Assembly (NCBI GenBank): GCA_001805695.1
Contig: MHGT01000007.1
Coordinates: 19,001-51,068 of the forward strand
Origin: Omnitrophica WOR_2 bacterium RIFCSPHIGHO2_02_FULL_67_20
Lineage (GTDB): Bacteria; Omnitrophota; Gorgyraeia; Aquiviventales; Aquiviventaceae
Direction of reading: 5' to 3'
Length of the DNA stretch: 32,068 bases
Positions 13,717-32,068 of this stretch are shown here, piece by piece (within the stretch, counting starts at the first letter, position 1; each line of letters starts with the position of its first letter). The translations under genes were made by a program, and so were the position numbers. The notes under the pieces are model-generated. The model searched no databases, had not been told where the DNA came from, and saw nothing but the letters and a program-made list of their open reading frames with translations.

Positions 13717-14220
13717 ATGGCGCAAGATCATAGCTTTGATTTCGTCTCGAAGGTCAACATGCAGGAGTTCCGCAACGCGCTCCAGCAAGCGCAGCGGGAA
13801 ATCAGCACCCGGTTCGACTTCAAGGGCAGCAGCGCCGCGGTGGTCTTCGAGGACGCGCAATCGCCGCCCCTCCTGAAGGTCACGGCGGACAACCACGCCC
13901 AGCTCTTCAGCGTGGTGGACGTGGTGCACGGCAAGCTCGCCAAGCGCGGCGTCCCGCTGGCTGCGCTCTCGTGGAAGGAGCCCGAGCAGCTGCCGGGCGG
14001 CTCGATGAAACGGCACGCAGCACTCCAGCAGGGCATCTCTTCCGACCAGGCACGAGAGATCGTGAAAGCGATCAAGGATCTGGGGCTGAAGGTTCAGCCG
14101 CGCATCGAGGGCGATGCCGTCCGCGTGTCGGGGAAGCAGCTCGATGACCTGCAGGCGGTGGTCCAGACGGTCACGCAGCGCTCGTTCGGCATTCCGATTC
14201 AAGCGGAGAACTACCGGTGA
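13717..14220 (+). CDS. yajQ: YajQ family nucleotide/c-di-GMP-binding protein
   Basis: SFDFVSKV, RFDFKGS, LQQGI, VRVSGKQLDDLQ, ENYR end. Confidence 0.95.
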   Translation: MAQDHSFDFVSKVNMQEFRNALQQAQREISTRFDFKGSSAAVVFEDAQSPPLLKVTADNHAQLFSVVDVVHGKLAKRGVPLAALSWKEPEQLPGGSMKRHAALQQGISSDQAREIVKAIKDLGLKVQPRIEGDAVRVSGKQLDDLQAVVQTVTQRSFGIPIQAENYR

Positions 14221-14225
14221 AGAAG

Positions 14226-14312
14226 AGTCCATAGTCCGCAGTCCGCAGTTCGTAGCCGGATCTGTTCGAGGGACAGTCTTGGCTACGGTCTACGGACTAT
14301 CGACTACGGACT
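14226..14312. repeat. Inverted heptamer arrays (AGTCCGN x4 / GACTACG x4)
   Basis: agtccat agtccgc agtccgc agttcgt ... ggctacg gtctacg gactatc gactacg. Confidence 0.85.
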
Positions 14313-14328
14313 AGACACGGAGGTCGGG

Positions 14329-14568
14329 ATGACGGGAGGAAAGTGTTGTGGGGTGTGCAAGGTCGTCGGGCTCCTCGTCGGCATCGGCGCCCTGAACTGG
14401 GGGCTGGTGGGAATCTTCCAGGTGGACCTCGTGGCGAAGCTGTTGGGAGACATGACCATGCCGGCCCGCATCGTCTACGGCATCATCGGGGTGGCGGGCC
14501 TGCTGAAGCTCGTCTCGCTGGTTAAGTGCTGTCCCTGCAGTTCGGGCAGCTGTCAGACCAAGTCGTAA
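14329..14568 (+). CDS. DUF378 family small membrane protein
   Basis: IGALNWGLVGIFQVDLVA, RIVYGIIGVAG; GGAGG RBS. Confidence 0.92.
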   Translation: MTGGKCCGVCKVVGLLVGIGALNWGLVGIFQVDLVAKLLGDMTMPARIVYGIIGVAGLLKLVSLVKCCPCSSGSCQTKS

Positions 14569-15761: not shown

Positions 15762-17201
15762 ATGGACCCTGTGAAAGCAGACATTGTTGTCATCGGCGCC
15801 GGTCCCGGCGGATACGCTGCCGCATTCTACGCGGCGGATAAAGGCCGCCGGGTCATCCTCGTGGAGCAGGACGCGCGGCTGGGGGGTGTGTGCCTCAACC
15901 GCGGGTGCATTCCTTCCAAGGCGCTTCTCCACGCGACCGAGCTCATGCGGGAGGCCAAGGAGCTGAGCAGCGCACGCGGCATCACTTTTGGCGAGCCCTC
16001 CGTCAGCCTGGAAAAGCTCCGCGCCTGGAAGGAGTCCGTCCTCGCCAAGCTGGCGGGGGGCATCGGCACGCTGGCGAAGGCGCGCGGGGTGCAGATTCTC
16101 CATGGGCGCGGCCACTTCGAGGACTCCACGACCCTGCGCGTCGAAACGTCGGAGGGGCAGAAGTTCCTCACCTATCAGACCGCCATCATCGCCGTCGGCT
16201 CGAAGCCGGCGATGCCCCAGGCGTTCGATGTGGGCAACCCGCGGATCATGACCTCTACCGAGGCGCTGGACCTTGCGGAGATCCCGAAGGACCTCCTCGT
16301 CGTCGGCGGCGGCTACATCGGCTTGGAGCTTGGCACCGTGTTTGCGACGCTGGGCAGCCGCATCGTGCTCGCCGAGGCGCTGGACTCCATCTTGATGGGG
16401 CTCGACGCCGATCTGGCCCGTCCGGTCCTGCGGTACGCGCAGACACACTTCAAGGAGGTGCGCCTGGGTGCGAAGGTGCTCAAGATGGCCACGAGTAGTC
16501 AACAGATCAAGGTGACGTTCGAGGCGGGGAACGCCCAGAAGGGCGAGCTCTACGACCGGGTCCTGGTCGCCGTCGGGCGCACCCCCAACTGCGCGAACTT
16601 GGGGCTGGAGAATACGAAGGCCGCGCGGAACGAGCGGGGCTTCATCAGGGTCAACGCGCAGCAGCAGACGGACGACCCCGCCATCTACGCCATCGGGGAC
16701 GTCGTCGGCGGCGCCATGCTCGCCCACAAGGCCTCGAAGGAGGCGCGCGTCGCGGTCGAGGTCATCACCGGCGAATCGAGCGCCTTTGAGCGGATCACCA
16801 TCCCGGCGGTCGTCTTCACCGACCCCGAGGTGGCCTGGTGCGGCCTCACCGAGTCCGAGGCCCGGGCGAGGGGGATCGCCGTCGAGGTGGCCAAGTATCC
16901 GTGGTCCGCCTCTGGCCGGGCGCTCTGTCTGGACCGGACGGACGGGCTGACCAAGCTGGTGATCGAGCCGAAGACGGAGCGGATCCTGGGCGTGGGCCTG
17001 GTCGGTGTGCGCGCCGGCGAGCTCATCGGCGAAGGAGTGCTCGCCATCGAGATGGGCGCCACCGCCAAGGACCTAGCCGAGTCGGTTCACCCGCACCCGA
17101 CGCTCTCCGAGACGCTCATGGAGGCGGCGGAGCTCTTCTACGGCACCTCCACCCACGCGCTCTCGCGCCGCCGCCCCAAACCTGCCCAGGCGGAGCGGTG
17201 A
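15762..17201 (+). CDS. lpdA: Dihydrolipoyl dehydrogenase
   Basis: GAGPGGY, GGVCLNRGCIPSK, GGGYIGLE, AIGD, LAHKA, HPHPTLSE. Confidence 0.97.
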   Translation: MDPVKADIVVIGAGPGGYAAAFYAADKGRRVILVEQDARLGGVCLNRGCIPSKALLHATELMREAKELSSARGITFGEPSVSLEKLRAWKESVLAKLAGGIGTLAKARGVQILHGRGHFEDSTTLRVETSEGQKFLTYQTAIIAVGSKPAMPQAFDVGNPRIMTSTEALDLAEIPKDLLVVGGGYIGLELGTVFATLGSRIVLAEALDSILMGLDADLARPVLRYAQTHFKEVRLGAKVLKMATSSQQIKVTFEAGNAQKGELYDRVLVAVGRTPNCANLGLENTKAARNERGFIRVNAQQQTDDPAIYAIGDVVGGAMLAHKASKEARVAVEVITGESSAFERITIPAVVFTDPEVAWCGLTESEARARGIAVEVAKYPWSASGRALCLDRTDGLTKLVIEPKTERILGVGLVGVRAGELIGEGVLAIEMGATAKDLAESVHPHPTLSETLMEAAELFYGTSTHALSRRRPKPAQAER

Positions 17202-25531: not shown

Positions 25532-25542
25532 AGAAGTTGAGC

Positions 25543-26316
25543 ATGGCGCCGCCTCTGCATTTCACTGAGCAGGGCACTGGAACCGCGCTGCTGCTCCTGC
25601 ACGCGTTCCCGCTGTCGCACGCGATGTGGAGCGGGGAGCTCGCGCGCTTTGCGACGATGCGGCGCGTGATCACGCCTGATTTGCCGGGGTTCGGCCGCTC
25701 GCCGCGGCTCACCACACCGTCCATTCCCGCCATGGCCCGGGCGGTGGCCGCGCTGCTGGATGGGCTGGGCATCCGCGAGCCGGTGATGCTGGGCGGCCTC
25801 TCCATGGGCGGCTACGTCGCGCTCGAGTTCTTCCGGCAGTTTCCCGATCGGGTGAAGGCGCTGGGGCTCTTCTCCACGCGGGCCGCGCCAGACTCGCCGG
25901 AGCAGCGCGCGGGGCGCCTGCAGTTGGCCGGCCAGCTCGCGCGGGACGGCATCGAGGCACTGATGCAGACCGCCGTTCCGAAATTACTGGGGCCAACAAC
26001 GAGGGCCCGCCGGCCCGCGGTGGCGGAGCAGGTCGAGCGGGCCGCCCGGGCGGCGAGCGTGGACGGTGTTGCCGATGCGCTGCGCGCCATGGCCGCGCGC
26101 GCGGATTCGCGGCCCCTGCTCGCCGCCATTGGGTGTCCGACGCTGGTCGTGGCCGGCGGCGAGGACCGAGTGATTCCCGTTGCTGAGAGCGAAGCGATGG
26201 CCAAGGCGATTCCCGGTGCTCAGCTCGCAGTGATCCCGGAGGCCGGCCATGTGGTCAACCTCGAGCAGCCGGATGCGTTTCAGGGCATTGTGGAAGCCTG
26301 GATCCGTCACAATTGA
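25543..26316 (+). CDS. Alpha/beta fold hydrolase
   Basis: LHAFP, PDLPGFG.S, GLSMGG nucleophile elbow, GGED, AGHVVNLE. Confidence 0.95.
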   Translation: MAPPLHFTEQGTGTALLLLHAFPLSHAMWSGELARFATMRRVITPDLPGFGRSPRLTTPSIPAMARAVAALLDGLGIREPVMLGGLSMGGYVALEFFRQFPDRVKALGLFSTRAAPDSPEQRAGRLQLAGQLARDGIEALMQTAVPKLLGPTTRARRPAVAEQVERAARAASVDGVADALRAMAARADSRPLLAAIGCPTLVVAGGEDRVIPVAESEAMAKAIPGAQLAVIPEAGHVVNLEQPDAFQGIVEAWIRHN

Positions 26317-26323
26317 AAGGAAA

Positions 26324-26351
26324 GGTGCCAGCTACCGCGGTGCCTGGCACC
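26324..26351. repeat. GC-rich hairpin (REP-like) at the core/accessory boundary
   Basis: GGTGCCAG ... CTGGCACC perfect 8-bp arms; no U-tract on the + strand. Confidence 0.55.
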
Positions 26352-26390
26352 GGGCTGAAGAAGATAAACGGCTGTGGCGAATAAGACCTC

Positions 26391-26419
26391 TTGCCAAGTG
26401 ATAACAGATATGTTATCAT
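26391..26419 (+). promoter_or_regulatory. Sigma70 promoter with overlapping palindromic operator
   Basis: TTGCCA, 17 bp, TATCAT; TGATAACA-gata-TGTTATCA at 26399-26418. Confidence 0.75.
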
Positions 26420-26437
26420 TCTATCGGAGTCAGATCA

Positions 26438-26570
26438 GTGCTGGAAGTCCTGTACTACCCTGAAGGGAGCCGCGTGGCTGGTTCACAGCGTTGAGAAGAA
26501 GAGCGCGAAAACGCCAAGGGATGATCTTGAGCTCGCAAGAAGGAGGCTAAAGGAGGTGACGGCTCGATGA
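26438..26570 (+). pseudogene. Internally deleted RelE/HigB (Gp49-like) toxin
   Basis: N-terminal MLEVLYYPEG joined out of frame to WLVHSVEKKSAKTPRDDLELARRRLKEVTAR*; stop overlaps the antitoxin ATG. Confidence 0.8.
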
Positions 26571-26869
26571 GAGGCTTCGACAAGCACTTGCATGAACTAC
26601 TGGAAGCGCACCCGGAAGCGGCATTGGAGCACGCCAAGCTGTTCGCCGAGCTTCCGCTGCCGACGCAGCTGGCCATCATGCGCCGCCGAAGGAAGCTGTC
26701 TCAACGCGCCTTGGCAAGAAAGCTGAGGGTGCGTCAGCCTCATGTGGCTCGGACCGAAAGCGTCCGTCACGACCCACGCATCTCCTCGGTTGTCCGGGCC
26801 GCTAAAGCGGTTCGCTGCCATGTTCTGCTCGTACCGGATGAAGAGCTAAAACGGATCGCGGTGGCGTAA
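26567..26869 (+). CDS. XRE/HTH antitoxin (HigA-like)
   Basis: RRRRKLSQRALARKL.VRQPHVAR.E; AAGGAGGT RBS; follows the toxin remnant. Confidence 0.88.
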   Translation: MRGFDKHLHELLEAHPEAALEHAKLFAELPLPTQLAIMRRRRKLSQRALARKLRVRQPHVARTESVRHDPRISSVVRAAKAVRCHVLLVPDEELKRIAVA

Positions 26870-26918: not shown

Positions 26919-27133
26919 TGTCCGTGAGAAGCAGGTAGGAGTAAAATAAACTGGTTACTTGTGCCCGGCGCAAGATGGCGCTGAAGCTGCTGAAGGAACT
27001 GAATGGGTATGAATAAGTGTTTCAGCGCGAGCAGGAAATGGTAATGTGGCATCGGAAGTTCCCTGGAATTCCTTGATCATTCCTAAGGTGGTGCCGGATA
27101 AGCAGTGGTCCGTGACGACCCGAGAGCAGTCTG

Positions 27134-27757
27134 ATGAGCAACCAAAGAGCCAATAGCGGAGAGCATGATGCTTGGAGAGTGCTCTTGCCGGTCATCATTG
27201 GTGGAGTGCTCGCAACAGTTGGCGGCATCGTAAGCCAGTATTGTGCGTCGCAGTTTCAATTCTCGACTGAAGCTCGCATCGAGAAGATTCAGGAACAGCG
27301 CCAGGTCTTTGCGCGGCTCATGGGGCGGAAGTTTGCCACCAAGCAACTGCATGTCTCTCGTTACGAGGCGCTCGTCTTTTCTGATTATCACGAGGCGCGT
27401 TGGAAGCGCGCTGGCTCGCCGAACGATTCTCTCGACCTGCAAGAGGCACAGCGCTGGATGCACCGTAGCGAGGATCTTGTTTTCGAGATCGTAAGGAACA
27501 ACCAAATCCTCTTTGAAGACATCGGAGTCGCCCGTGCGCTGTTCCCCAATACGCCGCGCCTTCGCGAATTGGTGGATCGGATTTACAGCTTCAAGGCCCT
27601 GAAAATGTCACAACCTCCAGATGATGCTTCGTTGGAGGAGTTGGTCCAGTGGAAGGACGAGTCTGTTCGGCAGCTACAGTCGGTGGTTGATCGCGAATAC
27701 GGAGAACCAATCGATGAGCTTCTGGTCTACCTCTCGCAGCAGCTTCCGATGGATTGA
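27134..27757 (+). CDS. Hypothetical protein with one N-terminal TM helix
   Basis: 207-aa ORF with hydrophobic VLLPVIIGGVLATVGGIVS followed by a helical soluble region; family not recognised. Confidence 0.75.
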   Translation: MSNQRANSGEHDAWRVLLPVIIGGVLATVGGIVSQYCASQFQFSTEARIEKIQEQRQVFARLMGRKFATKQLHVSRYEALVFSDYHEARWKRAGSPNDSLDLQEAQRWMHRSEDLVFEIVRNNQILFEDIGVARALFPNTPRLRELVDRIYSFKALKMSQPPDDASLEELVQWKDESVRQLQSVVDREYGEPIDELLVYLSQQLPMD

Positions 27758-27842: not shown

Positions 27843-27878
27843 ATGAATAAGCCTCTCGCGGTCGTTACGTACGGATGT
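27843..27878 (+). pseudogene. miaB: miaB-like 5' fragment 1 (MNKPLAVVTYGC)
   Basis: ATG AAT AAG CCT CTC GCG GTC GTT ACG TAC GGA TGT, then unrelated sequence to TAA 27920; same Met-to-TYG spacing as the other fragments. Confidence 0.6.
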
Positions 27879-27921
27879 TCCCTCGACTTGCTCTGCGGCC
27901 GCTTCGCGGCCGTCAAATAAA

Positions 27922-28086
27922 ATGTGGATGAGGGGTCCGGTTGTTCCCTCGTCGCGGATCTCGGCCGTCGGCCTCGACCGCTCCTCAGTTTGGGAGGAAC
28001 ACCTTAGTAATATGTGGATGTGGGGTCCGGTTGTTGCCTCGTCGGAGATCTCCGCCTTCGGCGTCGACTCCTCCTCGGCATCAACC
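27922..28086. repeat. Two 65-bp direct repeats (period 90) folding into covarying hairpins
   Basis: 27922-27986 versus 28012-28076: 56/65 identical by my count, with 6 of the 9 differences forming three compensatory pairs. Confidence 0.85.
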
Positions 28087-28150
28087 ATAGGTCTGGAGTG
28101 AGGATGGTCCTCAGATGAGTAAGAGCATTTTTCTCCAGACCTATGGTTGA
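28081..28150. repeat. Perfect 18-bp inverted repeat
   Basis: TCAACCATAGGTCTGGAG (28081-98) / CTCCAGACCTATGGTTGA (28133-50). Confidence 0.95.
28115..28150 (+). pseudogene. miaB: miaB-like 5' fragment 2 (MSKSIFLQTYG*)
   Basis: Aligns without gaps to MTKSIHLITYGC; GAGGA RBS at 28100-04; TGA at the Cys position. Confidence 0.75.
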
Positions 28151-28294
28151 CCATATGTGTCTAAAAGGGGGATTCCTGATAGGGAGATTTGGTGGAGGAG
28201 ACCAAGAAGGCTTGGTAGCGCTTCCTTAGTGCTTCAGACGGTGGCTGAGGGGTTGCAGGTGGCGCTGGCCTCGACGTAACCAGGGAGCCGTAAA

Positions 28295-28675
28295 ATGGTG
28301 GTCAACGAGGCGTTCGGCTGGTTGTGGATTGTGCTGGGTTTCGCTTCAGGAACGCTCCTGGGGCTGAAGTTCCAGAGCGAAAGCTGGCTGGGAGGCTACG
28401 GTTCTCACAGACGGCGACTGATTCGCCTGGGCCACATTTCCTTCCTGGGACTTGGATTTTTGAACATCCTGTTCGCACATAGTCTTCCGCAACTTCGCCT
28501 GAGCCAGGCATGGTTATCGCTGGCTTCGTGGAGTTTGATGCTCGGAGGTGTGACCATGCCAGTGTGCTGTGGCTTGATGGCATGGCGGAAGAATCTGCAA
28601 CCAATTTTCGCCATCCCAGTCGTTGCCCTTCTCATCGGTGCGTTCCTGGTGCTGATCGGTATGGTGCAGCCATGA
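28295..28675 (+). CDS. Hypothetical 4-TM membrane protein
   Basis: Four hydrophobic segments, LGGYGS.RRRLIRLGH motif, GGAG RBS, ATGA coupling to the next gene. Confidence 0.85.
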   Translation: MVVNEAFGWLWIVLGFASGTLLGLKFQSESWLGGYGSHRRRLIRLGHISFLGLGFLNILFAHSLPQLRLSQAWLSLASWSLMLGGVTMPVCCGLMAWRKNLQPIFAIPVVALLIGAFLVLIGMVQP

Positions 28676-30063
28676 AAGTCGGCTTCATCGCCATGAGTGG
28701 TGTGCGAGCGTACAACGAGGAACTCACGCGAATTGGGCTGACGCTTCCTGGTTTTGTCGAACGCAGCCAGGTCATTGCTTCATTGCCGAGCCTTTCACTT
28801 CTGACATTGGCGGCGATGACTCCACCGCCAATCGAGGTTGAGTATCGTGAGATCAAAGATTTGCGAAACACACCACCCCTTCCTACCGATTACGATCTGG
28901 TCGCCATCTCGTCCTTCTCTGCCCAAATCTACGAAGCCTACCAAGTCGCCGATGAGTATCGCAGACAGGGAATCCCTGTGGTTCTTGGCGGGCTTCATGT
29001 CAGCGTATTACCTGAAGAAGCGAAAACACATTGTACAAGTGTGGTAGTTGGCGAAGGTGAAATATCATGGGGGAAGGTTGTTGCCGATTTCGTTGCAGGG
29101 AAGCTCCAAGACTATTACACCCCTGCTGGGGAGTCGTACAACTTGGCAGACGCTCCGATTCCCCGTTACGAATTGCTAGACATCGAGCAATACAACCGGC
29201 TGACAGTCCAAACCAGTAGAGGCTGTCCTCACCGCTGCGATTTCTGCGCTAGTTCCATTCTGTTGACCCCCAAGTACAAGGTCAAACCTGTTGAACAGGT
29301 CATCGCCGAGATTCGAAGGATCAAGGCGATCTGGAAGCATCCATTCATCGAGTTCGCTGACGACAACAGCTTTGTAATTCGAGAGTATTACAAACGCCTG
29401 CTGCGTGCGCTCAAAGATGAAGGGCTTCGTTGGTTTACGGAAGCAGACATCTCCGTTGCCGAGGATGAGGGGTTGCTGCATCTGATGCGTGAAAGCGGCT
29501 GTCGGCAGGTGCTCATCGGCTTGGAAAGTCCCACACCGCAGGGCTTGGATGGCGTCGAGCAGCGGCGAAACTGGAAACTGAAGAAACTGCCGGACTACGA
29601 GTCAGCGATTCGTACCATTCAAGGGCATGGGATCACTGTGGATGGATGCTTCATCTTGGGACTGGATGGAGATGGTGAAGACATCTTTGATCGCGTCTAC
29701 GAGTTTGTCGAGAATACAGGATTGTATGAAGTGCAACTGACCGTACTGACGCCATTTCCTGGCACGCCGCTCTATCACCGCCTGAGACAGGAAGGGCGTT
29801 TACTCGAAGATCGAGCCTGGCACAAATGCACGCTCTTTGATGTGAATTACGTGCCCAAGCAGATGTCGGTTGAAAGGTTGGAACGTGGATTGGTGGAGCT
29901 ATCAAGAAGGATTTACGATAGTGCGTTTATTCGTGATCGAAGGAGACGCTTTTTCAAGACGCTGCGGAGAAGTGGAGTGGAGTGGTTGCAAAAAATGGAG
30001 GAGGGATGGGGCGATGAGTATCGGGACGATCAAGAAGCTGTTTGTGATCGCCGCGCTGTATGA
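28672..30063 (+). CDS. B12-binding domain radical SAM protein
   Basis: PSLSLLTLAAMTP, VVLGGLH, VVGEGE, QTSRGCPHRCDFC (CxxxCxxC), FADDN, IGLES, FILGLDGD, LTPFPGTPL. Confidence 0.95.
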   Translation: MKVGFIAMSGVRAYNEELTRIGLTLPGFVERSQVIASLPSLSLLTLAAMTPPPIEVEYREIKDLRNTPPLPTDYDLVAISSFSAQIYEAYQVADEYRRQGIPVVLGGLHVSVLPEEAKTHCTSVVVGEGEISWGKVVADFVAGKLQDYYTPAGESYNLADAPIPRYELLDIEQYNRLTVQTSRGCPHRCDFCASSILLTPKYKVKPVEQVIAEIRRIKAIWKHPFIEFADDNSFVIREYYKRLLRALKDEGLRWFTEADISVAEDEGLLHLMRESGCRQVLIGLESPTPQGLDGVEQRRNWKLKKLPDYESAIRTIQGHGITVDGCFILGLDGDGEDIFDRVYEFVENTGLYEVQLTVLTPFPGTPLYHRLRQEGRLLEDRAWHKCTLFDVNYVPKQMSVERLERGLVELSRRIYDSAFIRDRRRRFFKTLRRSGVEWLQKMEEGWGDEYRDDQEAVCDRRAV

Positions 30064-30394
30064 TTTTGTTCTGGGTGTAGTCTTTTTGGTGGCTTGGAAG
30101 CAGGTCTACAACTATTTCGGGGTGACGCTCCCGAACCACGATGGCTACGTGCAATTTGGGGCGGCACTGGTGGCAATCTTCGGGGTTGGGTTTTGGCTTG
30201 TGGCGCAGAACCCTGAGCGCAACCGTGACATCATCAAAATGGGTGTCCTGTTGAAAATCGCATATTCGGGCGTAGTGCTTGGACACCACTTCTTCGGGAT
30301 GGTTCCAGGCGTGTGGGTTCCGTTTGCCTGGTGCGATCTTGTTTTTCTAGCGTTATTCGTAGCGGCACTGCGTGCCCTGCCATCAAGGGCGTAG
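30014..30394 (+). CDS. Hypothetical 4-TM membrane protein
   Basis: LF.IAALYD..LG, P.RNRDII.MG...K, W.DL.F..LF; 50-nt overlap with the radical SAM gene. Confidence 0.82.
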   Translation: MSIGTIKKLFVIAALYDFVLGVVFLVAWKQVYNYFGVTLPNHDGYVQFGAALVAIFGVGFWLVAQNPERNRDIIKMGVLLKIAYSGVVLGHHFFGMVPGVWVPFAWCDLVFLALFVAALRALPSRA

Positions 30395-30443
30395 GATAGC
30401 AGAGACTTCTTGCGTGACATAATTGCCCGCTGATCATATGAAT

Positions 30444-30650
30444 ATGACGAAATCCATACATTTAATCACTTACGGCTGTCAGATGAATGAAAGAGATTCC
30501 GAGGAGGTGCTCGGGATGCTGACGGCGCAGGGCTACGAGATCGCCGGGCAGCCGGAAGACGCGGACGTCATCCTCCTGAACACCTGCTCGGTACGAGCCC
30601 ATGCCGAGGAGCGGGCGTTTGGGAAGCTTTCGGGTAGAGAATATTGTTGA
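30444..30650 (+). pseudogene. miaB: miaB 5' fragment 3 (truncated UPF0004 domain, about 62 MiaB-like residues)
   Basis: TYGCQMNERDSE, ADVILLNTCSVR..AEERAFGKL, then SGREYC*; no radical SAM domain follows. Confidence 0.93.
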
Positions 30651-30682
30651 CATACAATCCATTTTCGTAGAATATTGACAGT
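30638..30682 (+). promoter_or_regulatory. Candidate promoter of the AAA ATPase gene
   Basis: AT-rich; TTGACA (30647-52) and TAGAAT (30668-73, 15-bp spacing is suboptimal); AGAATATTG repeated twice; no RBS, so possibly near-leaderless. Confidence 0.45.
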
Positions 30683-31867
30683 ATGGAATACATCACTAGA
30701 CTGCTGGAACAGAAAATCCGACGGGCCCTCCATCGCAATAGAAGCATCCTGCTCTTCGGGGCCCGGCAGACCGGCAAGACCACGCTGATCAGCCGCTTTC
30801 ACGCGGATCTGGTCATCACCCTCGTGAGGCCGGACATCCGTCAGCGGTATGAAAAGTCACCACAGCTACTGGCCGGTGAGGTGGAGGCGCTCGCCCCCAC
30901 AGCCGCGAACACACGTCCGCTGGTCGTTGTCGATGAAGTGCAAAAAGTGCCAACGTTGTTGGATGTGGTGCAGGACCTCATTGACCGGGGCCGCGCCAAT
31001 TTTGTGCTGACGGGGTCCAGCGCTCGAAAACTTCGCCGCGGCGCCGTCGTCAATCTCCTGCCGGGGCGCGTGGCCACGTTCAGGTTAGATCCGTTCAGTT
31101 TGCGGGAAGTGCCCGCACAGGACGTGCATGAGCGCCTGCTGTACGGGTCGTTGCCCGGCATGCTGGCGGTGCCGGATCGTGCAGATCGAGAAACCGATTT
31201 GGAATCGTATGTGACGACGTATCTGGAAGAAGAGGTGCGGGCAGAGGCGCTTGTGCGGAATGTGGGCGATTTTGCCAGGTTTCTTGAGCTGGCCGCATCC
31301 GAATCCGGCAACATCGTCAACTTGAGAAAATTGTCTCAGGAGATCGGCGTGTCCCATACGACGATCGGGGCCTACTACCAAATTCTCGAAGACTGCCTGA
31401 TCGCCGAGCGGATTGAGCCCGTGACCCACAGCAAGACGAGGAAGAAACTGACCAAATCCGAAAAATACCTGTTCTTTGATTTGGGGGTCCGGCGTCTGGC
31501 AGCCCGAGAAGGCACGAAACTGCCGCGCGATACCTTCGGGCGGCTGTTTGAGCAATTCGTTGGTCTGGAACTGGTTCGGTGCGCCCATGCTGCGCACCGA
31601 ACCCTCGCCATCCGCTTTTGGCGTGATCCGGACGGCCCGGAAGTGGATTGGGTCATCGACGATGAGGGGGCCTATGCCCCCGTGGAAGTGAAATGGACGG
31701 ACCATCCTCGATCCGGCGACATCCGCCATCTGGAAGTGTTCCTCGACGAATATCCCTCGGCCAGGGCCGGGTACATCGTGTGTCACGTGCCGCGTAAAAC
31801 CAAGCTGAGCCGCCGCGTCGTCGCGCTGCCCTGGCAAGCCATTGACGAGCTGATCCCTGCGTCATGA
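30683..31867 (+). CDS. AAA_14 / DUF4143 ATP-binding protein with C-terminal nuclease-like motif
   Basis: GARQTGKTT, VVVDEVQK, LTGSSARKL, NLLPGR, YGSLP, KYLFFDLGV, EVDWV...VEVK. Confidence 0.93.
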   Translation: MEYITRLLEQKIRRALHRNRSILLFGARQTGKTTLISRFHADLVITLVRPDIRQRYEKSPQLLAGEVEALAPTAANTRPLVVVDEVQKVPTLLDVVQDLIDRGRANFVLTGSSARKLRRGAVVNLLPGRVATFRLDPFSLREVPAQDVHERLLYGSLPGMLAVPDRADRETDLESYVTTYLEEEVRAEALVRNVGDFARFLELAASESGNIVNLRKLSQEIGVSHTTIGAYYQILEDCLIAERIEPVTHSKTRKKLTKSEKYLFFDLGVRRLAAREGTKLPRDTFGRLFEQFVGLELVRCAHAAHRTLAIRFWRDPDGPEVDWVIDDEGAYAPVEVKWTDHPRSGDIRHLEVFLDEYPSARAGYIVCHVPRKTKLSRRVVALPWQAIDELIPAS

Positions 31868-31899
31868 CCCGCGCGATCTTTCTTCAAACCTATGGGTGA
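31864..31899 (+). pseudogene. miaB: miaB-like 5' fragment 4 (MTRAIFLQTYG*)
   Basis: ATGA overlap with the ATPase stop; IFLQTYG identical to fragment 2 with only synonymous changes; TGA at the Cys position. Confidence 0.78.
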
Positions 31900-32068
31900 C
31901 CATAGTGGTGCAATACCTGGACTCCCCGCACTATCCAGACAGGCTGTTGCGGAGGACGCCAACCAAGTGTTCGAGGCGCTGGCCGATGGGTTCCGCCTTG
32001 TGCTGGCAGGAATAGAGTTGAAGTGATCATGGTAGTGACCCGCTCACTGCAGATGCTCACGGCAGTCG

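Follow-up and report, generated by a model that had tools for sequence, protein, structure and literature searches.

The window analysed here, a stretch of 32,068 nucleotides (G000:C7:19001-51068, contig MHGT01000007.1) from the draft genome of the Omnitrophota bacterium RIFCSPHIGHO2_02_FULL_67_20, ends together with its contig C7 in an array of DNA units bounded by severed starts (stubs) of the tRNA-modification gene miaB; positions 1-32,068 refer to this whole stretch. We consider, with a probability of about 0.7, that the array grew as small units inserted time after time, in a fixed orientation and site-specifically, at miaB codons 9-12 (T-Y-G-C). An incoming unit would carry a left end of approximately 125 nt, which stops the stranded stub and codes for a leader peptide, followed by cargo and by a new miaB start, a three-part anatomy that is typical and does not fit every unit. 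Exchange would take place at or behind the invariant TG of the Cys codon, with the old start staying as a stub on the left border of the unit, and the incoming start would fuse to the remaining miaB, keeping that gene intact. Because each old start is stranded at the left border of a unit, new units would enter beside miaB and the oldest would lie furthest left.

The same genome (845 kb in 42 contigs, 73% complete) contains an intact miaB, which was located by a UPF0004 search and lies at the very start of contig C36 (C36:96-1742, 548 aa) in the same orientation as the stubs, as the earlier note on this DNA had predicted. The encoded protein scores 462.6 bits over its full length on the MiaB model TIGR01574 (cut-off 355.3), with the MtaB and RimO models remaining below their cut-offs. 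On the 5' side, this miaB is flanked by the 3' end of an AAA-ATPase gene: the first 130 nt of C36 are those of window 31769-31898 save for one base (31868, C versus A), and comprise the 3' end of the AAA gene and the sequence from ATG to TATGGGTG, such that the start carried by the AAA unit of the window is the live miaB start in C36. Behind TATGGGTG, C36 runs CCAAATGAAT... into the 548-aa MiaB, whereas the window runs ACCATAGTGG... into a further unit, X. This divergence means that the genome holds two forms of one site; as read from the two contigs, the empty form is the AAA-unit start fused to miaB, and the filled form is that in which unit X appears to have entered behind TATGGGTG.

Both forms are also found among the contigs of sequencing runs (Logan contigs). 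The empty joint, leading from 31898 via CCAAATGAATGCCCGG into miaB and carrying the A at 31868, was recovered at a depth of 10.6 in run X1 and 9.35 in run X2. The filled form is represented in X1 by a contig over 31838-31920 (depth 3.4) and in X2 by contigs on 31949-32068 (depth 3.4-6.1), and is shallower than the empty form in both runs. Of the empty-site and circular junctions that the earlier note had proposed to look for, the run contigs of X1 and X2 showed the first, and no circular form was seen. Over 30300-32068, partial coverage with 0 differences comes from contigs of four runs that belong to three studies, and the last 25-55 nt of C7 have no other occurrence in the own genome. Downstream of miaB, C36 continues with miaA, hflX, hrcA, grpE and dnaK (named from the translations of open reading frames, ORFs, without family search), all of them housekeeping genes with no recombinase among these translations.

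The array itself is composed of the following features, from left to right.

27843-27877 (+): stub 1, a native-type miaB start (MNKPLAVVTYG plus TG) with the break after 27877; its 5' untranslated region (UTR) and N-terminus match the intact miaB of the relative G009 as well as stubs of G014, G008 and G019.
27878-28149 (+): three cargo-less units (27878-27943, 27944-28033 and 28034-28149), direct repeats of 85% identity, each beginning TT(C/G)CCTCG and ending GGTTG; the third, of 116 nt, ends with stub 2 (ATG at 28115, MSKSIFLQTYG plus TG).
28081-28150 (no strand): perfect 18-bp inverted repeat with arms at 28081-28098 and 28133-28150, the right arm coding for LQTYG plus TG.
28150-28279 (+): left end of cassette 2, starting ACCATAT... 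behind the TG, with the leader ORF ending ..LQTVAEGLQVALAST and a stop; an nhmmer match to the left-end core lies at 28228 (E=9.5e-7), 79 nt past the stub. It is homologous to left ends in G049, G050 and G007.
28295-30394 (+): cargo of cassette 2, namely a 126-aa transmembrane protein (28295-28675), a B12-binding radical SAM protein (28675-30063; Pfam Radical_SAM E=2.5e-16, plus B12-binding and DUF4070) and a second 126-aa transmembrane protein (30014-30394); every NCBIfam match of this cargo is under its cut-off.
30444-30626 (+): stub 3 (long), the right end of cassette 2 (MTKSIHLITYG plus TG, to 30478) followed by miaB codons 12-61 (30479-30626); UPF0004 E=7.8e-20.
30627-31898 (+): AAA unit, with promoter-like sites (30647-30702), an AAA_14/DUF4143 ATPase (30683-31867; Pfam; PADLOC PDC-S01, a candidate defence family, E=1.3e-69) and stub 4 (MTRAIFLQTYG plus TG, 31864-31898), the stop of the ATPase overlapping the miaB start (ATGA).
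31899-32068 (+): left end of the further cassette X, starting ACCATAGTGG..., diverging from C36 at 31899 and ended by the contig end.
31892-32026 (+): leader ORF of unit X, its ATG lying inside the TATGG of stub 4; the next ORF runs from 32029.

The four MiaB N-terminal fragments are all on the + strand where the earlier note had placed them, with T-Y-G as residues 9-11 in each. The stub at 27843 reads MNKPLAVVTYGC and then SLDLL.. to a stop, those at 28115 and 31864 are MSKSIFLQTYG and MTRAIFLQTYG directly followed by a stop, and that at 30444 reads MTKSIHLITYGCQMN...AFGK, then LSGREYC and a stop, with the MiaB equivalog as its best NCBIfam match. Three stubs stand directly after a cargo gene (the 207-aa transmembrane protein, the transmembrane/B12-radical SAM/transmembrane trio and the AAA-DUF4143 ATPase) and one after repeats, although these "hairpin repeats" are better described as three cargo-less units, all terminating in GGTTG. 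Stub 1 is indeed a MiaB N-terminus (the intact G009 gene reads MKKRLAVITYGCQMN...), but together with the repeats it forms a module that also occurs away from miaB. The fragment at 30444 is a MiaB N-terminus of a different kind, continuing as miaB to codon 62 at 92% DNA identity with the host gene (30468-30626 is 91.8% identical to C36:120-278, and the match stops at 30626).

The 11-aa stubs are too short for scoring with profile hidden Markov models, and their identity was judged against the live N-termini of relatives, which they match residue for residue, with the 5' UTRs matching too. The stubs carry the UPF0004 signature of a hydrophobic strand followed by T-[YFW]-G-C-Q-M-N, and stub 3 is detected by PF00919 with E=7.8e-20. 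The word ACNTAYGGNTG has 9 occurrences in the 845-kb genome: the four + strand stubs, the inverted copy at 28081-28098, the C36 miaB, a related copy on C16 and two random-looking ones. A stub pattern (start codon, 6-9 codons, [TSP]-[YF]-G-TG) was run over 80 unrelated miaB loci (1.31 Mb), which are distant MiaB genes retrieved via the universal QTYGCQMN word and serve as a chance control only; it gave 3 + strand matches outside real genes, with 1 more on the other strand, and none was MiaB-like. In the loci of the family (0.219 Mb) the same pattern gave 18 matches, of which approximately 15 are plain MiaB starts. Together with the metagenome left-end scan described below, this control puts the short fragments far above chance expectation.

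The break had been proposed to lie near the first Cys codon and is found inside it, between TG and the third base. All 18 listed stub junctions read GGN-TG with the new sequence starting behind the TG, and TG is invariant both in these 18 and in 22 listed junctions that are live or long. At the wobble position N of GGN, the base differs in front of one and the same left-end class and within one stub type, and is therefore not tied to the incoming unit. The exchange point indicated by these alignments is at the TG or directly behind it. Three classes of left end follow, A (ACCATAG..), C (GCCGTTG..) and B (TTCCCTCG.., cargo-less and palindrome-rich), the junctions reading GGN-TG and then ACCATA, GCCGTT or TTCCCTC. 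Left ends of classes A and C are homologous modules of approximately 125 nt that open with RCCRTA, an inverted copy of the abutting TAYGG. Of 15 bases compared for the dyad TAYGGN-TG-RCCRTA, 9-10 are mirrored in several junctions of classes A and C versus 2-6 in live genes; the dyad is seen in these two classes and neither in class B nor in the right half of attB.

The class A left end puts TGA and TAG into the miaB frame, and in the +1 frame it contains a leader ORF of approximately 40 aa. The motif ..IPGL.E....QV[LF][EQ]ALAEGF[RQ][LV][VA]LA(E/G)(T/A), followed by a stop, is kept in 15 of 17 class A sequences, the two without it being chance matches. Differences between leader ORFs fall mostly at third positions and the leader is under purifying selection, a substitution pattern that shows the left-end leader to be coding. 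Between its stop and the first cargo gene there are 0-30 nt, with TAAATG as a frequent arrangement, and where the preceding Tyr codon is TAT, the T-ATG-G there supplies the ATG of the leader. The leader peptide has no Pfam match at E<=10 and one 41-aa relative among 5.8 billion proteins, and no longer protein containing it was found (weak evidence). Considered as RNA, the left end gave no structure that is conserved (-5.3 kcal/mol, covariation term -0.37). The two window junctions are its sole sites in the own genome; a weak match on C9 is spurious, being located inside a gene on the opposite strand.

Right ends carry the new miaB start, M-x6-8-T-Y/F/L-G, and end in GGN-TG; in some, a box resembling a -10 element can be made out by eye 7-12 nt ahead of the ATG. 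Two right-end types (MSK[ST]IFLQTYG and MNSRRVFLQTYG) form hairpins, in which an arm of 17-20 nt located 54-57 nt upstream pairs with the ..LQTYG-TG arm. This hairpin scores 16-20 of 20 in 6 of 28 junctions, where ACC/ACT, TAT/TAC and GGT/GGG change on both arms; it is no general requirement, because the other 22 junctions lack such an arm. Units measure 116 nt, 777 nt or 1.2-2.7 kb, and their cargo ranges from none to approximately 5 kb. One cargo was compared in two arrays to fix the right border, and the border could not be placed in this pair as the 3' parts have diverged.

Arrays of this kind recur in relatives. We examined 41 genomes (the own genome and 40 relatives): MiaB was located in 35, the 5' end of the gene was found in 23 of the 35 family genomes, upstream DNA was read at 23 loci, and the frequency of stubs was counted over those 15 family genomes in which the upstream sequence extends for 1.5 kb or more. 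An intact miaB is preceded by stubs in 7 of these 15, namely G014 (2 stubs), G008 (at least 4), G019 (3), G021 (1 long stub, with 5 kb of cargo), G007 (3-4), G049 (5) and G050 (2). A truncated array remnant is present in G023, and G026, of a sister family, has one stub preceding a 116-nt unit. The variable cargo at a fixed junction that the earlier note had expected of relatives was accordingly found. Homologues of the left end of unit X follow stubs in G008, G019, G007, G049, G050 and G041 as well as in 13 metagenome contigs, and the third, 116-nt unit of the window is found again before miaB in G014, G008 and G023. Since the live miaB of G009 starts MKKRLAVITYGCQMN and its 5' UTR resembles that of stub 1, stub 1 represents the native start type; a native-type stub is leftmost in the own genome, G014 and G008, and nearest to miaB in G019.

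Live N-termini vary widely even inside one genus (G008 MNSKTVFLQTYG versus G045 MRTRLYVATYG; G001 MSKTIFLQTYG versus G043 MNKAVFLQTYG), with the first 123 residues overall 67-89% identical to those of the own MiaB. In 8 of 23 family genomes the contig breaks off upstream of miaB within 1.3 kb of the gene (20, 92, 95, 115, 330, 411, 763 and 1226 nt), and strain heterogeneity at the site would yield such breaks. In locus L047 (G008:C8), one cargo segment occurs twice in the array (14081-14452 and 16418-16825), each time after a left end of a different class; the duplicated segment holds a 93-aa membrane-protein ORF and an overlapping longer ORF.

A metagenome search pattern was built from left-end bases alone, without any stub bases. 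It matched 17 places in 16 metagenome contigs, 14 of which are directly preceded by a MiaB-like stub (including MQESVFMQTYG, MNTVVSLQTFG, MKKLVHVRSFG and MRKSIYLRTFG, each followed by a stop), the remaining 3 being unrelated sequence; none of the 16 contigs is circular. Arrays ending in a live miaB are present in L144, L149, L151 and L152, whereas L156 has three stubs and no miaB within its stored part. In L149 MLKSVFVQTYG serves as a live start, and L156 has it as a stub with a cassette behind it. As an indication of mobility, different stubs are followed by homologous cargo in different genomes (L133 3381 versus L156 10006; L147 4047 versus L156 8511). A profile of the leader core gave 29 matches in the loci examined, 24 of them at 41-79 nt behind a stub core, a count in which 15 of the 24 had built the profile or were chosen by the pattern. 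Across a phylum sample of 401 genomes, the exact left end was found only in the family (the own genome, G019 and G041). Four further phylum matches with 1-2 mismatches look like noise: a reversed control pattern gave a comparable number (12), and the one that was checked has no stub. The viral contigs gave 0 left-end matches.

Pfam was run on 29 cargo and flank ORFs, and many further cassette ORFs were read as translations only. Toxin-antitoxin cargo comprises HigBA-like pairs, Doc with an antitoxin and AbrB-type proteins (named from translations) and a zeta-like protein (Pfam). Two ThsB-type TIR proteins adjoin a protein with a weak, below-cut-off match to PD-(D/E)XK; further cargo includes a PDC-S01-type ATPase, a methyltransferase and membrane proteins without known family. 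No recombinase was recognised among the cassette ORFs scanned by Pfam, in line with the description of the units as integrase-less. Small stand-alone proteins of approximately 92-115 aa, GIY-YIG-like by eye, are encoded at L041 3274-3567 (miaB-forward), L144 3236-3583 and L156 3506-3784, and in two arrays such a gene is in the cassette nearest to miaB; a homing-type role of these proteins is conceivable.

To the left, the array is joined to host-type DNA through a short region with the following features.

25537-26316 (+): alpha/beta hydrolase, a host-type gene (GC approximately 68%) left of the island; Pfam Abhydrolase_1 E=1.5e-31.
26316-26354 (+): hairpin of high GC content, GGTGCC..GGCACC, on the left border of the island; 92% match with C33:2202-2241.
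26391-26869 (+): toxin-antitoxin remnant, consisting of a Gp49/HigB-like fragment (26391-26570; Pfam Gp49 E=5.9e-5) and an HTH-XRE antitoxin (26567-26869; HTH_31 E=2.2e-7).
27134-27757 (+): ORF for a 207-aa membrane-anchored hypothetical protein, just upstream of stub 1; no match in Pfam or PADLOC.

The GC profile of the window is at approximately 0.68 up to 26 kb, drops after 26.3 kb and stays at 0.51-0.60 from 27 kb on, with the island at 51-55% against approximately 68% for the host. Orthologues of the hydrolase occur in G018 and G012 at differing distances to miaB, and the antitoxin has 94% protein identity with one located approximately 1.5 kb upstream of miaB in G023. Hairpins like that at 26316-26354 also precede stub-1-type modules on C16, on C33 and in G023. 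The C16 copy of the native-type stub (MKKRLAVITYGC followed by SLD.., C16:21988-22160) comes with cargo-less units, lies between genes read as glyA and nrdR, and is followed by a helix-turn-helix gene and a nucleotidyltransferase-like gene; the C33 copy (C33:842-1000) is cut short and stands beside an IS110-family element with 18-bp inverted ends. The segment at window 26967-27042 is shared with C33:755-830, L034, L040 and L133 4168-4218; its counterpart in G049 is directly behind a stub junction and it may belong to another left-end class.

Abundant repeats are a feature of the genome in general, with several REP-like families such as that of C16:28838-28908, found on over 20 contigs. Within the C36 miaB, the UPF0004 part is separated from the radical SAM part by an in-frame, palindromic repeat of REP-like kind ((GGTTCAGG)n..(CCCCGAAC)n, C36:475-545), which is related to C16:31290-31380 and others, and near MiaB residue 290 there is a second insert of low complexity.

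Recombinase families were searched in the own genome and in relatives. Tyrosine recombinases (PF00589) gave 0 matches in the 73% complete own genome; among the 40 relatives, most have only two Xer-like copies, none on a miaB contig. Large serine recombinases (PF00239) are encoded in 6 of 24 family relatives and not in the own genome, and 7 contigs carrying them, when scanned, showed neither stubs nor att-like motifs. Xer proteins apart, the recombinase most widely distributed in the family is a Y1 HUH protein (PF01797, approximately 230 aa), present in 17 of 24 relatives and on C42 of the own genome; G014 (86% complete) and G019 (93%) have arrays and no Y1_Tnp match. IS110 proteins (PF01548) occur in 5 of 35 genomes. 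The C42 gene (C42:17166-17507) encodes a 239-aa Y1 transposase-like protein and is flanked by GGTACC-rich palindromes. At L042 (G009:C48), approximately 90-580 nt upstream of miaB, there is a degenerate IS200-type TnpA gene between two GC-rich hairpins, with the HLH motif kept and D at the position of the catalytic Tyr; the miaB of this genome has a native start and no stubs. The dif site of the family reads ..TATAA-GATATA-TTCTGTTAAAT and is near-identical in 19 of 35 family genomes, with one site each in most and two matches in G008; the own-genome candidate is TATAAGATATATTCTGTTAAAT at C19:35404-35425 (found with a looser pattern, the first patterns having given none). A junction of Xer/dif type was rejected, as this dif bears no likeness to ACCTAYGGN-TG-RCCRTAG.

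Given that no recombinase was found in the units whose ORFs were scanned, we infer that an enzyme encoded elsewhere, by the host or by a helper element, acts in trans, and the units would move as circles. Serine recombinases act at a 2-nt crossover. A recombinase of this type is weakly favoured here because a short dyad with 6-nt half-sites surrounds an invariant, non-palindromic 2-nt centre, because the flanks of the partners may differ freely, and because the wobble N shows no sign of stemming from the incoming unit. A further reason is that tandem ssrA islands in small genomes use CcrB-like serine recombinases and are in some cases integrase-less (PMC3146451). Each stranded start would drive the cassette behind it, in what may be called a promoter relay. 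Going further, the array could be a cassette-capture platform of its own kind, an integron analogue with its entry site in a housekeeping coding start, adaptor cassettes, an unrecognised recombinase family or host enzyme acting in trans via the 14-bp TAYGGN-TG-RCCRTA, and a relay of stubs; we put this forward tentatively, at clearly less than even odds.

A number of observations weigh against site-specific insertion as outlined. The filled and empty forms are co-existing strains rather than a caught event, because a single-base difference 30 nt from the junction separates them, and they are no proof of a fresh insertion; X1 and X2 may in addition derive from the same sample as the genome source. 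Neither a circular form nor the right junction of unit X was seen in the run contigs, which stop short of that junction. Stub 1 and the repeats are also present at C16:21988-22152 and C33:842-902, both non-miaB loci, and because the class B units are found there as well, array pieces can be copied to other loci. The RCCRTA half-site is missing from class B units (4-6 of 15 bases mirrored), and of the 3 such units in the window, 2 terminate in a poor start (GTG-GGG-TCC-GGT-TG). Only about half of the junctions offer the leader ATG or TTG as a start, with ACG in the rest, and a promoter scan of the window was not enriched (5 versus 2.9 +/- 1.8 in shuffles). Three stubs are long (own stub 3 to codon 62, approximately 33 codons at G008 15271 and 24 codons at G021 4604), and these fit a 2-nt crossover only if attP carried 24-62 miaB codons; the 30444 fragment with the AAA unit needs an attP with approximately 186 nt of miaB, or else homologous recombination. 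Finally, 7 of the 15 family genomes have no stub (G006, G009, G012, G015, G017, G018 and G043), and the searches of the own genome and relatives tied no recombinase to the array.

These points lend themselves to other explanations. The units might be accretion remnants, whereby integrase-bearing islands or prophages entered the 5' end of miaB and deletions left att-flanked, no longer self-moving (cis-mobilizable) pieces. Tandem islands bounded by gene-end repeats, some without an integration module, are known at Dehalococcoides ssrA (PMC3146451), the leftmost junction (native-type stub and then TTCCCTCG) is common to several genera and makes part of the array old and inherited, and no activity was directly seen. 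Yet none of the ORFs scanned or read in approximately 30 cassettes (from 9 genomes and from 13 contigs of metagenomes) resembles an integrase or its remnant (a subset of these having gone through Pfam), there is no PF00589 or PF00239 match on any miaB contig, and the units are small and uniform, with a left end conserved down to a leader under purifying selection, which random decay would not yield. We regard this history as unlikely. Slightly more improbable still is HUH (Y1) single-strand transposition of the IS200/IS605 or REP/RAYT type, with insertion 3' of GGNTG and hairpin-guided cleavage. The Y1 proteins are widespread, as described above, some right ends are 17-20-bp hairpins with matched changes on both arms, the cargo-less units are palindrome-rich, and the oriented insertions show neither target duplication nor long terminal repeats. 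However, the hairpin is confined to 6 of 28 junctions, the left end has no conserved fold, two fairly complete genomes with arrays (G014 and G019) gave no Y1_Tnp match, the C42 gene is flanked by unrelated palindromes, and the sole Y1 remnant near miaB is the degenerate IS200 copy of G009, a genome without stubs.

The long stubs would be expected if a circle bearing a truncated miaB 5' piece had integrated by a single crossover (62 codons at 92% identity in the own genome, approximately 33 in G008, 24 in G021), and at G008 15271 the hairpin arms differ at two synonymous sites, as if the crossover had been further 5'. This would suit an origin without any dedicated recombinase, through homologous or illegitimate recombination among diverged miaB 5' segments (Campbell-type events, unequal crossing-over). 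The short stubs nevertheless share just approximately 11 nt (ACNTAYGGNTG) with the target while their upstream sequences differ, which is too little for RecA, and the base at which the break falls is the same for 14 of 14 true junctions from metagenomes and for every class A junction of the family, making such an origin very improbable. An artefact of assembly or binning, in which a chimeric contig end joins foreign low-GC DNA to a host contig, might be suspected of a low-GC island at a contig end in a 42-contig, 73% complete draft; this is a negligible prospect in view of the difference-free coverage from four runs and three studies, the recurrence of this architecture in 9 or more other genomes and in 13 contigs from metagenomes, and the link of the island to the host's own miaB through stubs 3 and 4.

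If the array was built by site-specific insertion, mobile DNA could accumulate at one gene without killing it, as every unit repairs the start it severs. In this uncultured family of small genome size, miaB appears to be where a variable stock of genes of toxin-antitoxin and defence type is kept. A recombinase, if found, would recognise a very short site in the nearly universal TYGCQMN coding motif, which would be of interest for genome engineering, and it becomes testable whether cassette arrays arise without an integron integrase. Strain heterogeneity at the site may explain the frequent breaks of draft genomes at miaB (8 of 23), and annotators should regard 11-codon "ORFs" at miaB as scars.

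Several known systems share part of this arrangement. Dehalococcoides ssrA islands stand in tandem at a single-copy housekeeping gene, each bounded by a short gene-end repeat; most carry a six-gene module with the CcrB-like DsiB, and some lack an integration module and are read as cis-mobilizable (PMC3146451). The miaB units resemble these islands, and SCC at orfX/rlmH, in being tandem units at one gene with recombinase-less members. By comparison, the ssrA islands, as described there, use the 3' end of an RNA gene with a 20-bp repeat, whereas the miaB units use a 5' coding end and bring a start codon and expression signals; an integration module was seen in none of the miaB units, whose size goes down to 116 nt. 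Replacement of a 5' coding end is itself known: the description of SXT has it integrating into prfC at its 5' end and replacing that end (PMC2791158), and that of dusA islands gives the 5' end of a tRNA-modification gene as the target, with the island replacing the end and leaving a remnant (PMC4482086). The miaB units do the same, the old end being left as a remnant. As portrayed in these texts, SXT is an element of approximately 100 kb, self-transmissible and defined by its own tyrosine Int and Xis (PMC2791158), and dusA islands have a dedicated tyrosine integrase at the junction, single large islands or prophages being the rule (PMC4482086); the cassette ORFs scanned here include no element-encoded integrase next to an att site, and the miaB units are unlike both in this respect.

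SXT supplies prfC with a new 5' end and a promoter, and SXT/R391 elements form tandem arrays. The sites of tyrosine recombinases usually have a centre of 6-8 nt, compared with the 2-4 nt at the centre of the miaB junction dyad. Integrons are one-way arrays of small recombinase-less cassettes with one entry site, in which toxin-antitoxin and defence cargo is common and expression comes from upstream signals; some of their sites fold as hairpins, and their attC sites have R''/R' boxes with the crossover at G|TTRRRY. The earlier note called the miaB array integron-like, and this holds for its logic only: no IntI-type recombinase stands beside the insertion site (PF00589 has 0 matches in the own genome and none on the miaB contigs of relatives), intI is likewise missing from most genomes, and no attC-type G/TTRRRY site was seen. 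Unlike in integrons, entry is inside a housekeeping gene that each cassette repairs, with a conserved leader ORF at the 5' side of the cassette and a gene start at the 3' side. IMEX elements and pdif modules are recombinase-less and are moved by host XerCD at dif-like sites. The miaB units are like them as recombinase-less modules depending on a host enzyme, Xer-like proteins being the only widespread tyrosine recombinases of the family, but their junction is unlike the family dif.

Our literature search found no report of miaB as such an integration site; only the dusA paper surfaced, the accessible portion of which lists few tRNA-modification targets, among them one MiaB-like rimO in Polaromonas, and does not name miaB (PMC4482086), supplementary target lists lying outside the search. 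What is already known is 5'-end replacement (SXT, dusA), tandem recombinase-less accretion (ssrA) and recombinase-less cassette arrays (integrons). New in the arrays described here are miaB as the target, small and uniform recombinase-less units with a leader ORF and a gene start, empty units of 116 nt, and the short dyad site.

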